From an uncultured delta proteobacterium (GTDB taxonomy: Bacteria; Desulfobacterota; Syntrophobacteria; BM002): 64,000 bases of DNA. The notes under the pieces were generated by a model. The model made no database searches. It saw nothing but the letters and a program-made list of their open reading frames with translations, and was not told where the DNA came from. Each line of letters opens with the position of its first letter. Positions within the stretch are counted from its first letter, which is position 1. The stretch covers positions 32,001-96,000 of the forward strand of contig CAVQGX010000018.1 of assembly GCA_963712115.1 (NCBI GenBank). The letters are read 5' to 3'. This document shows positions 39,952-41,360 of this stretch, in pieces. A program made the position numbers and the translations under genes.

Positions 39952-40057
39952 CTAACCTCAGGTAGCAAAGACGGGAGGGTAAACCAAGGGCAGTCACAAA
40001 CAGAACGTCAATATTCAAGCACAATGTGGCGCAAGGCTTAAGCAACTGTGTTGCTTG

Positions 40058-41008
40058 TCAAGCTGTTTCCTCAAAATGAGGTTGCCATGGCGCATGGTTT
40101 TTCATCATAGCGTTGAGTATGGTTAACAATTTTCGCATGCAAGCAGTCAGCGCAACTTTATGCGCTTTGCCCGCGGCACAGAGACGTTGGTAGAAGGCAC
40201 TAATGACCGGATTAAATCTAATAGCAGTAAGTGTTCCCATGTATAGCACTGCTCTGACGTGCCCACGGCCACCCCATATGGACCTTCTGCCACGAAATTT
40301 GCCACTGTCTCTGTTGAAAGGAGCTACTCCTACTAATGCTGCGATTTGCTTTCGGTTGAGTTTGCCCAGCTCAGGCAATCCAGCCAACAGACTGACTGAG
40401 AGCACTGGTCCTACTCCTGGCACAGTGCGAAGTAATTGCTCTTTTGCCCGCCAGACAGGACTGGCTTTTATGGTCTTTCTCAGATCCTTATTGATATCGT
40501 TTAGACGTTGCTCAAGCCAGGCAATATGGGCCTTGATGTCACTGTCTACAGGCTCGGGAGCAGTCATAAGACGATTTTTCTCTGCAGTAAGCATCTCTAC
40601 CAGCTGCTTTCTGCGGGCAACCAGGGCACTGAGCTGCTGTGCTTGCTGGTCCTTGAGAGGTCTTACTTCCGGTTTTGTCGCCTCGCCAAAGTGGGCCAAA
40701 ACCTGGGCATCGATCTTATCGGTCTTAGCCAACTTGCCCAGTGATTTGGCAAAATCCCTCACTTGGCGAGGATTGACCACTACAACGGGAAGACGAGCTG
40801 CGGCCAAAAGAGCAACAACGCCTGTCTCAAGGCCTCCTGTAGCTTCCAGGACAATCAGGCGAGGACGTAACCGCTTTGCGTCTTTAATCAGCGTGCGGAT
40901 CCCTTCCTCGTCATTGTCCACAGACCATGTATCGTTTTTTGGGACTACGGCAACATCCAAAAGGTTTTTGGAAACGTCAATACCTATGACTCGCTCTGAT
41001 TGGCTCAT
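40058..41008 (-). CDS. IS110 DEDD recombinase/transposase
   Basis: [52 protein letters not shown]; intact. Confidence 0.95.
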
Positions 41009-41014
41009 GATAGC

Positions 41015-41185
41015 TTCTCCCCCCGGCCTTGCGGATACGGGCTCAAAAGGCCCAGACAACTGTTCGGGTTATGTGGAGATGGACGTGACGACCCATGCTT
41101 AAGCTCGGACTTTATGTCCCAGGCACTATAGTCGATCTGTCACGTCCTTAGGCTAATTAAACATATCATGAGCCATGGCATTAAC
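41015..41185 (-). ncRNA. Predicted bridge RNA of the IS110 element
   Basis: Target loop closed by GGACGUGAC/GUCACGUCC with AUAGUGCCU and GCUUAAG; donor loop with ACAGUUG and GCAAG. Confidence 0.8.
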
Positions 41186-41360
41186 AACATACAAGGCGCA
41201 GGGTGCACGGCGAATTCATAGAATCCATTAGCCAGTAGCCAGTAGTCAGGAGCTGAAAGGGACTCGTTTCAGTTCTTATCTTGTGAATACTGGATGCTGG
41301 CTCTTTCACCTTATGCCTCGAGCCTTGCACCTTGTGCCCTAGCATGGGGGAGGAGAAAGC

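Follow-up and report, generated by a model that had tools for sequence, protein, structure and literature searches.

Why should an RNA-guided insertion sequence sit inside a short tandem repeat? The question is raised by positions 40043-41195 of the window, the whole 64,000-nucleotide stretch of DNA from an uncultured delta proteobacterium analyzed here. An earlier note on this DNA had proposed that an IS110-family element at this locus carries a bridge RNA programmed to target the heptamer repeat arrays of its host. Our analysis makes it very probable that 40043-41195 is an intact, recently mobile IS621-like element whose guides are set to a heptamer-array target. The mechanism is already known, being of the IS621 type; the natural target class is new as far as the literature searched shows.

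The whole element lies on the minus strand and measures 1153 bp, as delimited by its sequence, by contigs carrying the empty site and by full-length copies found elsewhere. Read on the minus strand it starts with CT-TGTATGTT... at the left end and finishes with ...ACAGTTG at the right end; of the two occurrences of the CT core, only the one at the left end (41195-41194) is counted as part of the element, the other lying directly after the right end (40042-40041). Two full-length copies from other metagenomes, L087 and L088, terminate at the same bases. The recombinase ORF (40058..41008, minus strand, ATG at 41008) is intact and encodes 316 aa with a DEDD RuvC-like domain and a Tnp domain, with Pfam matches to PF01548 (1.3e-27, 96.9 bits) and PF02371 (3.5e-18, 66.2 bits) that both lie above the cut-offs. 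Among solved structures it matches ISCro4 (PDB 9t56, E 2.8e-38, residues 2-309) and IS621 (8wt6, E 8.3e-35), and its residues D11, E55, D97, D100 and S235-G236 align with D11, E60, D102, D105 and S241-G242 of IS621, whose catalytic residues are named in PMC11208158, such that all five catalytic residues are present.

Contigs in the public runs X2 and X7 run from position 40039 straight on to 41193, so that exactly 1153 bases are absent, with 3 bases of ambiguity at the join, and one CT is left. They fix the boundaries of the element independently, and they show scarless insertion or excision without a target-site duplication. The strain with the empty site (record 12 of X2) is ~97% identical to the window in the flanks, which constitutes a presence/absence polymorphism. 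The ends also hold the two halves of a putative promoter, a -35 hexamer TTGACA in the right end (40056..40061, minus strand) and a -10 hexamer TATGTT in the left end (41186..41191, minus strand), predicted to be active only once the ends are joined. As the earlier note had stated, the right-left junction reads TTGACA-N17-TATGTT, and the same match is found in L087 and L088; IS621 likewise rebuilds a promoter on its circle (PMC11208160).

Between the left end and the ORF lies the bridge RNA core (41017..41154, minus strand), a target-binding stem-loop followed by a donor-binding stem-loop, delimited by a covariance model and by covariation. The model, R1, was built from 42 relatives; it scores 106 bits at this RNA, its sole match in the window and in the genome, and it matches once per locus in 100/100 loci, always directly upstream of the ORF. 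Across 91 distinct sequences the stems are paired in 97.8% of cells, versus 79.8% in shuffled alignments and 34-51% when the partners are slid. Compensatory changes on both sides occur in 18 of the 23 RNA pairs, and cells with such changes number 355 versus 83 +/- 10 in shuffles, a value reached by 0/500 shuffles. The single-sequence fold of the window RNA is not more stable than its shuffles (z = -0.58). Fold, consensus fold and pair counts all place two stem-loops with internal guide loops in the left end. One contig of an RNA library (X15) spans 41017-41200 of a variant copy, a weak hint given that such libraries may hold DNA.

The Rfam family sX15 (RF02234) matches the same region on the other strand (31.2 bits, E 0.01), and in 3/10 relatives a match falls at the same place, antisense to the recombinase (35.9-41.9 bits), which would make 41012-41159 a plus-strand small RNA unrelated to transposition. 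However, every one of these matches is below the gathering score of 55 bits, the stems fit either strand equally, and it takes the sense orientation of the bridge-RNA model for the loops to match the element's flanks and ends. We consider an unrelated small RNA exceedingly improbable; it is more likely that sX15 itself is a record of this bridge-RNA class filed on the opposite strand.

Read as a bridge RNA on the minus strand, the core contains four guides, each lying where the earlier note had read it. The left target guide, AUAGUGCCU (41121..41129, minus strand), comprises 7 nt and, reading the core, a CU; in the alignment it falls in the columns that hold the relatives' guides, which match the left flanks of those relatives. 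Compared with CCTGCGCCT it shows 5/9 identities plus two U:G-compatible positions; against its own site this means three of seven non-core identities, or five of seven including wobble, at the low end of a clade in which 6/38 insertions have at most 3 left-guide identities. Left positions 4-7 give 3/4 matches plus one U:G wobble, and the right flank matches at 5/5. The right target guide GCUUAAG (41098..41104, minus strand) is the exact reverse complement of CTTAAGC and pairs 7/7 with CT-TAAGC. Directly after it comes CA (41097-41096, minus strand), a candidate handshake guide for donor positions 6-7 (TG). In the donor loop, the left guide ACAGUUG(UC) (41055..41063, minus strand; ACAGUUG at 41057-41063) is identical to the terminal 7 bases of the right end (7/7), and its columns locate the right ends in relatives. 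The right donor guide, GCAAG + GC (41026..41032, minus strand; GCAAG at 41028-41032), pairs with the left-end CT-TGT at four of five positions plus one G:T wobble, and its GC is a candidate handshake for target positions 6-7. Relatives with GCGAG have left ends starting CTCGT, and those with ACAAG or GCAAG have CTTGT. The handshake bases fit the rule described in PMC11208158, CA against the donor TG and GC against the target GC, which is the GC of the heptamer.

We asked how well guides and flanks agree across the clade, leaving out the window element, L087 and L088, taking guides from the alignment columns and collapsing identical guide-target pairs. Gaps in the guide columns removed five of the 100 loci; a right flank was available for 89 loci and a left flank for 85. 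The right flank matches at 4.44/5 positions versus 1.48 in permuted pairs (61 pairs) and the left flank at 5.05/7 versus 3.18 (73 pairs), values that 0/5000 permutations reach in either case. The three outermost left-guide positions are weakly matched in the clade (0.42-0.58 identity). In an earlier guide test, 22 of 60 assigned loci had no found end or no 9-column guide, and 18 more loci had no aligned representative. This agreement between guides and flanks, with the Pfam domains, the homology to IS621 and ISCro4 and the covariation of a two-loop RNA, upholds the earlier note's appeal to IS110/IS621 bridge-RNA logic and supports classing the window element, from its sequence, as a probable IS110-family bridge-RNA element of the IS621 type.

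What, then, do the guides read? Excising 40043-41195 rejoins ggcgcaa-ggcttaa-ggcgcag-ggtgcac-gg, with a cut point that is ambiguous because of a shared 'aag'; on the minus strand the target is CCTGCGC-CT-TAAGC. On the element's own strand, the array to its right (40028..40042) comprises the minus-strand units TTAAGCC TTGCGCC and the array to its left (41196..41216) the units ATTCGCC GTGCACC CTGCGCC. The 14-bp target thus corresponds to two adjacent units of an NNNNGCC tandem array, with the CT core straddling the unit boundary: its C closes one unit and its T opens the following one. The restored in-phase array has a complementary arm at 41309..41340, as had been claimed, with complementarity that is partial; this arm and the split array make up the outer stem in a long, nested hairpin, and the reconstituted empty site (187 nt) folds at -79.7 kcal/mol with the array arms paired. 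The other arrays listed for the window, at 49128-49151, 61254-61277, 23221-23246 and 50626-50656, exist as described, and all features in the earlier note are indeed present in the sequence at the positions it gave.

The earlier note had suggested comparing the flanks of other copies, and the part of this comparison carried out rests on L087 and L088, which came from a protein-based scan of a metagenome collection; the exact 41-nt target-loop pattern had no match in that collection. Both copies are full length at 92-93% nucleotide identity to the window element, and their loci differ from the window locus, with flanks that match contigs C33 and C17 of the genome at 71-78%. Both lie in in-phase heptamer arrays; with the window site this gives three reconstituted arrays, each 5-6 units long and each with the core in an identical phase. 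Heptamer targeting is therefore real in 3/3 copies, through three independent insertions in arrays. The lag-7 identity of the three sites is 0.51, 0.74 and 0.60, versus a random mean of 0.256 (tail fractions 0.017, 0.0006 and 0.009). Lag-7 identity of at least 0.5 was found in 9/74 two-flank sites, among them L030, L164, L165 and L159, which are C-rich palindromes, and this measure alone is therefore not specific for arrays. These three are the insertions of the sub-lineage that were fully read; further loose-end flanks were judged by eye.

Guides and targets differ together between these copies. The right guide GCUUAAG becomes GCGUAAG in both L087 and L088, and the target changes from TAAGC to TACGC (flanks CT-TACGC); the left guide changes from ..GUGCC to ..GAGCC, with target GAGCC, or to ..GCGCC, with target GCGCC. 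Between the window element and L087, three of the four differences in the 138-nt RNA core fall within the 16 target-guide positions (Fisher p 0.005); between the window element and L088, where the count is 3/11, guide changes are not significantly enriched (p 0.12). Sequence comparison thus indicates that the target guides of the close copies have shifted to other variants of the heptamer.

Could a bridge-RNA element end up in such arrays merely as a by-product, the arrays being abundant and harmless intergenic DNA at which the guides are not aimed? Period-7 arrays are very common in this genome (2115, covering 62,270 bp or 1.27% of it), just three insertions of the sub-lineage have been read, and the left guide matches its own site only in part. 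Yet two NNNNGCC units in succession can be read from the guides themselves, the unit phase is the same in all three insertions, and guide changes between copies are mirrored by target changes. Moreover, the genome has 7 further GYGCCTTAAGC sites, and 5/7 of these other best-matching sites lie within or adjoin heptamer arrays, which occupy so little of the DNA. An untargeted origin is already disfavoured, and we rate it very improbable. The specificity of the targeted element is narrower than had been proposed: targeting of heptamers holds in 3/3 copies, but its range is one particular pair of adjacent unit variants within the NNNNGCC sub-class (179 of the 2115 arrays) and not arrays in general. 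Heptamer arrays of the genome contain 274 canonical consensus units.

The genome holds one copy of the element. None of the 17 same-genus genomes searched carries it (0/17), a DNA search of 60 relatives' genomes gave no close copy (best 71% over 272 bp), and a scan of species-representative genomes found only relatives at no more than 66% protein identity over the best segment. With one copy here and none in the same-genus genomes, there is no evidence of spread through arrays here. The single copy, and the lack of a circle junction or a clear transcript among the contigs of public runs (a form of data in which such a junction would not show), would suit an inactive relic, an element that has ceased to move and whose RNA and guide matches survive from an insertion long past. 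Against this stand the intact ORF with its full set of catalytic residues, the preservation of ends and junction promoter in three copies, the polymorphism between closely related strains, the occurrence of near-identical copies at three different loci, and RNA stems that are conserved while the guides vary; a relic is highly unlikely.

The choice of sites in this genome is restricted. When sites are scored with the window guides, allowing wobble at left positions 4-7 and requiring an exact right flank, the occupied site is equalled by only 11 others of the genome's 641,592 CT positions. A 14-mer fitting the guides perfectly is absent from the genome even with one mismatch allowed; two mismatches give 18 matches, only 3 of them near arrays. 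The earlier suggestion that the repeats provide a safe-harbour landing network is speculative and was overstated, given one copy and only ~7-11 further sites with a guide match equal to that of the occupied one.

From the homology to IS621, we infer the following cycle of circle formation, RNA expression and catalysis. The element would be excised without scar as a circle, and the joining of right and left ends would create the TTGACA-N17-TATGTT promoter, from which a bridge RNA of ~165-180 nt could be transcribed out of the left end. The donor loop (ACAGUUG.. / GCAAG) would hold the circle junction ACAGTTG-CT-TGTAT while the target loop (AUAGUGCCU / GCUUAAG) holds the 14-bp target, the invariant GC of the heptamer presumably being read by both the left guide and the handshake bases of the donor loop. 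The DEDD/Ser recombinase would then swap strands at the CT core.

Heptamer arrays are also occupied by a second, unrelated IS110-family lineage in this genome. It is IS1111-like, is found at C30 and C47, and has ends bearing TGACCTCTG, which matches the heptamer unit ranking second in abundance. For three other multi-copy IS110-family groups (8 copies, in a group count that leaves out a single C34 match), the 80 nt next to the ends contain no period-7 array, and array targeting is thus no family-wide trait. We tentatively suggest, at somewhat less than even chances, that in this sediment-bacterial lineage the heptamer arrays serve RNA-guided insertion sequences as diversified, evolvable landing pads, with at least two unrelated IS110-family lineages programmed to different units. 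As the 14-bp target is exactly two repeat units long, a few guide changes would retarget the element between unit variants; a short tandem repeat as a target class thus offers a simple retargeting route. Near-identical elements that differ in target-guide bases, with insertion sites that differ in the matching bases, represent natural reprogramming. Bridge recombinases are under development as programmable genome writers, and natural targets show the tolerance of such a system; the element adds a compact ortholog (316 aa, 1153 bp) with defined ends, guides and natural targets. It also ties poorly understood, very abundant heptamer arrays to the biology of mobile elements.

Within its own clade, the heptamer-targeting sub-lineage stands among elements with another target. 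The nearest metagenome relatives, L089, L090 and L091 (65-72% protein identity), as well as L030, L164 and L165, share the RNA model and a left end starting CT-TGTATG, and the right end terminates in ACAGTTG in L089-L091 and in ACGGTTG in L030. What these relatives target is a palindromic repeat and not a heptamer array: guides and flanks spell ..CCTAACC-CT-CTCCC.., and an inverted copy of the GGGGAGAGGG type comes next. Within the clade, heptamer targeting thus represents a retargeting. In the more distant relatives L102 and L128 the guides read as two tandem heptamers.

Filamentous cyanobacteria carry abundant intergenic heptamer tandem repeats, termed STRR. The TAACTGA repeats of marine Beggiatoaceae are likewise abundant, intergenic and direct, with a 7-nt period (PMC4679880). 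In the available sections of the STRR and TAACTGA reports we found no link of the repeats to RNA-guided insertion sequences, nor did we find a heptamer-array target for bridge-RNA elements described in the literature searched, where supplementary tables of natural targets could hold some.

The closest functional model is IS621 of Escherichia coli, whose bridge recombination has been described by Durrant et al. (2024; PMC11208160) and Hiraizumi et al. (2024; PMC11208158), and the best solved relative is ISCro4 (PDB 9t56), which agrees with the window element in domain order and catalytic residues. The window element has in common with IS621 a two-domain DEDD/Ser recombinase, a left-end RNA with target and donor loops, a 9-nt left guide that reads as the top strand, a right guide complementary to core and right flank, and a CT core. 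The donor ends are very similar (right ...ACAGT.., left CT-TGTAT), as are the promoter rebuilt on the circle and the handshake bases. The two differ in their natural target, adjacent units of a heptamer tandem array here and a REP palindrome in IS621; a right guide of 7 nt is standard in this clade, whereas that of IS621 is given in the available part of PMC11208160 as 4 nt with an optional extension. Here the outermost three left-guide positions are also weakly matched, and the protein identity is moderate.

Insertion into repeated intergenic sequence is itself reminiscent of ISPpu9 and ISPpu10 of Pseudomonas putida, also of the IS110 family (PMC12288879). For ISPpu10, a stem-loop at the target adds specificity according to the portion available of a preprint (bioRxiv 10.64898/2026.03.19.712850); the target here similarly lies within the stem of a long hairpin formed by inverted arrays, for which such a role is putative. 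The insertions of our sub-lineage are not of the REP type: all three copies lie in a tandem heptamer array, though the array is one arm of an inverted pair. As far as the accessible sections of these reports describe them, the targets of ISPpu9 and ISPpu10 are near-identical REP-type palindromes, whereas the element described here reads a short tandem array whose units come in many variants.

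The IS110-family element at 40043-41195 (minus strand, 1153 bp) carries a 316-aa recombinase ORF (41008 to 40058, minus strand) in which a Pfam search detected DEDD_Tnp_IS110 (1.3e-27) and Transposase_20 (3.5e-18). Its best solved relatives are the bridge recombinases ISCro4 (E 2.8e-38) and IS621 (E 8.3e-35), and an alignment places D11, E55, D97, D100 and S235-G236 opposite the active-site residues of IS621, whose composite active site is given as D11, E60, D102, D105 and S241, with G242 (PMC11208158). On the minus strand, the left end reads CT-TGTATGTT from 41195 and the right end ...ACAGTTG to 40043, while the flanks on the element's strand are CCTGCGC-CT-TAAGC. 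An earlier note had described an element inserted in a heptamer array and guided by an RNA encoded in its non-coding end: when checked against the sequence, its bounds, flanks and array repair were correct at every coordinate, the four guide strings stood where it had put them, and excising 40043-41195 indeed restored an in-phase heptamer array.

Contigs from four public sequencing runs were aligned to 39300-41900. In runs X2 and X7, one contig each passes directly from 40039 to 41193 and so lacks exactly 1153 bases; 3 bases at the joint could belong to either side. At 659 nt in length, the X2 contig has a shorter side of 106 nt, its differing letters being 7/106 and 10/437; the shorter side of the X7 contig is 39 nt. 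Filled and empty forms of the site thus both occur in nature, and the insertion is scarless. In further contigs of the same runs, the element's ends (90-100% identical) continue into other DNA, diverging after 41197, 41200 or 41203 on the left-end side and before 40035 or 40031 on the right-end side; by eye, these foreign flanks seem seven-periodic too. An RNA library (X15) contributes a single contig, over 41017-41200 of a variant copy, which hints only weakly at transcription, since RNA libraries can hold DNA.

Folding of the 187 nt that precede the ORF gives two stem-loops interrupted by internal loops, at an energy no better than that of shuffled sequences (z = -0.58), so that the case for a bridge RNA rests on comparison with relatives, whose loci we retrieved from species-representative genomes (80) and metagenomes (80). 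We aligned 42 distinct upstream regions, and their consensus fold shows compensatory changes in 13/18 pairs. A covariance model derived from this alignment gave exactly one match in each of 100/100 sources, always directly upstream of the recombinase gene, and matched the window's own 4.9-Mb genome once. On the alignment of these matches we scored a 23-pair structure taken from the window's own fold, 18 pairs of which were favoured because the alignment had been fitted to them: standard pairs occupy 97.8% of 2020 cells (79.8% in shuffles, 34-51% with slid partners), 18/23 pairs change on both sides, and 355 cells carry both-side changes, compared with 83 +/- 10 in shuffles and reached by 0/500 of them. 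Within the target loop, the inner hairpin, although absent from the model, pairs in 96.6% of cells. On this comparative evidence, the non-coding end of the element is its predicted bridge RNA.

Rfam matched no family on the sense strand of this region in the window and 10 relatives. On the opposite strand, the Xanthomonadaceae sRNA sX15 (RF02234) gave sub-threshold matches (31-42 bits, gathering score 55) in the window (41012-41159, plus strand) and in three of the ten relatives (L048 1325-1475, L018 1366-1429, L127 1044-1181). Each match covers exactly the bridge-RNA region and runs antisense to the recombinase gene; sX15 may be a bridge-RNA-type region entered in the other orientation. In a Duganella genome (L017), Rfam psRNA2 (RF02349) matches 467-525 of the minus strand, close to an IS110-family element, with 68.3 bits for a gathering score of 65.

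A metagenome scan yielded two full-length copies, L087 and L088, with 95% protein and 92-93% DNA identity to the window element. Their flanking genes match contigs C33 and C17 of the window's own genome at 71-78%, placing them at different loci in related organisms. Gathering the flanks of other copies, as the earlier note had proposed, showed both to lie in in-phase heptamer arrays, and the element-free sites are such arrays of five or six units in 3/3 cases: ATTCGCC GTGCACC CTGCGCC / TTAAGCC TTGCGCC in the window, TTGCACC TTGCGCC CTGAGCC / TTACGCC TTGTGCC TTGCGCC in L087 and TCTCTCC TTATACC TTGCGCC / TTACGCC TTGTGCC TCAAACC in L088 (slash, insertion). At all three, the core CT straddles a unit boundary, its C closing one unit and its T opening the following one. 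The window site has a lag-7 identity of 0.51, L087 one of 0.74 and L088 one of 0.60, compared with 0.256 for random genomic 42-mers (tail fractions 0.017, 0.0006 and 0.009, respectively).

Across these copies, guides follow targets. The window's left guide AUAGUGCCU (41121-41129) and right guide GCUUAAG (41098-41104) correspond to CCTGCGC-CT and TAAGC; in L087, AUUGAGCCU and GCGUAAG correspond to CCTGAGC-CT and TACGC, and in L088, AUAGCGCCA and GCGUAAG to CTTGCGC-CT and TACGC. Window and L087 differ at 4/138 RNA-core positions, three of them within the 16 target-guide positions (p 0.005), and 3/11 differing positions fall in target guides for L088 (p 0.12); the donor guides show 0 differences from either copy. 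Contigs of all four aligned runs carry A to C at 41102, the right-guide change of L087 and L088.

The window's right target guide matches at 7/7 positions and its left at 5/9, plus two U:G positions. Outside the core, the left guide is identical at 3/7 positions, the low end of the clade; of its four mismatches, three occupy the outer positions, which are weakly used, and one is a wobble. Among the genome's 641,592 CT positions, 11 besides the occupied site reach its guide score, and the guide-perfect 14-mer has no genomic match at up to one mismatch. Seven further GYGCCTTAAGC sites exist, five in or adjoining arrays, and one of those five, on contig C31, carries the occupied site's 14-mer CCTGCGC-CT-TAAGC. 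The element is single copy in its own genome and was found in 0/17 same-genus genomes searched. Period-7 arrays number 2115 (62,270 bp, 1.27% of the genome; 274 canonical consensus units). The heptamer-array specificity proposed earlier holds for a particular pair of NNNNGCC unit variants and not for arrays at large, this sub-class comprising 179/2115 TRF arrays, or 86 runs of at least 4 units. TAGTGCC, within the left guide, is the genome's commonest unit (144 arrays), and TAGTGCCT occurs 294 times, 189 of them inside arrays; TAGTGCC arrays are without a right half-site for the window guides. Heptamer repeats as a safe harbour for insertion are an idea at this stage.

The genome's tandem array density is extraordinary: short arrays fill 4477 TRF rows (period 7, 2115; period 9, 541), with examples in the window at 19939-20051, 47610-47734 and 48886-49005, and are often clustered, in inverted pairs able to form long nested hairpins. 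The last 100-150 nt of the L088 left flank (about 868-1014), heptamer-array DNA, match five other contigs at 78-88%, indicating that whole array clusters, beyond single units, are repeated around the genome. Leftwards from 41209, contigs of runs X1 and X2 show by eye an array of other unit composition in other strains, the loose end before 41209 holding other GGCNNNN units without a TTAAGCC-type unit. Such differences among close strains imply that arrays turn over quickly, with the target present or absent at one locus.

Outside the window, the same genome holds an unrelated IS110-family element of about 1532 bp in three copies of at least 99% identity (C30:130773-131198, C30:40994-41419 and C47:3214-3639). 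Its 392-nt right end is long, as in the IS1111 group, and TGACCTCTG stands at both ends; the ACCTCTG unit therein is the genome's second most common heptamer (120 arrays). Period-7 arrays lie at most 80 nt from an end in 3/3 copies, and within 80 nt of the ends in 0/8 copies of three other IS110-family groups of this genome.

Guides of more distant relatives were read off at the columns where the window's four guide strings align, their right ends being found via their own left donor guide plus CT and their left ends via the complement of the right donor guide. With the window, L087 and L088 left out and identical guide-target pairs collapsed, right flanks agree with right target guides at 4.44 of 5 positions (permuted 1.48; 61 pairs) and left flanks with left target guides at 5.05 of 7 (permuted 3.18; 73 pairs), values reached by 0 of 5000 permutations in both cases. 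In a first, smaller set of relatives, left-guide identity was 0.42, 0.50 and 0.58 at the outer three positions and 0.81-0.85 at the four core-adjacent ones. The donor side covaries as well: donor-loop GCGAG goes with left end CTCGT, and GCAAG or ACAAG with CTTGT. L089-L091, the next closest relatives at 65-72% protein identity, target a C-rich palindrome, so that the heptamer target represents a retargeting within the clade. In two others (54-60% protein identity), L102 (around 1043-1176) and L128 (around 132-266), the target guides are two tandem heptamers, CTAAACT-CT-AAATC and CTAAATC-CT-AAATA; L128 lies within a short heptamer array, where both half-sites are matched, and the L102 flank is matched by the left half only.

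Our literature search returned no paper connecting IS110 elements or bridge RNAs with targets made of heptamers or other short tandem repeats; supplementary natural-target tables may hold cases. A paper naming both IS110 and a heptamer deals with a clostridial toxin, and the examined passages that bring bridge RNA and tandem repeats together concern duplications of the element itself. For the reconstituted 187-nt empty site, the predicted fold is a long, nested hairpin at -79.7 kcal/mol in which the split array pairs with the arm at 41309-41340; this predicted fold recalls the stem-loop requirement reported for the target of ISPpu10 (bioRxiv 10.64898/2026.03.19.712850). In the window RNA, the CA after the right target guide can pair with donor positions 6-7 (TG) and the GC after the right donor guide (41028-41032) with target positions 6-7 (GC), neither matching its own DNA; such cross-pairing is described as the handshake rule (PMC11208158). 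IS621 is reported to pair with a left guide equal to the top strand and a complementary right guide, the core lying within both (PMC11208160). The guide-flank pairing of the clade follows this scheme, and the mechanism of the window element is that of IS621, already known.
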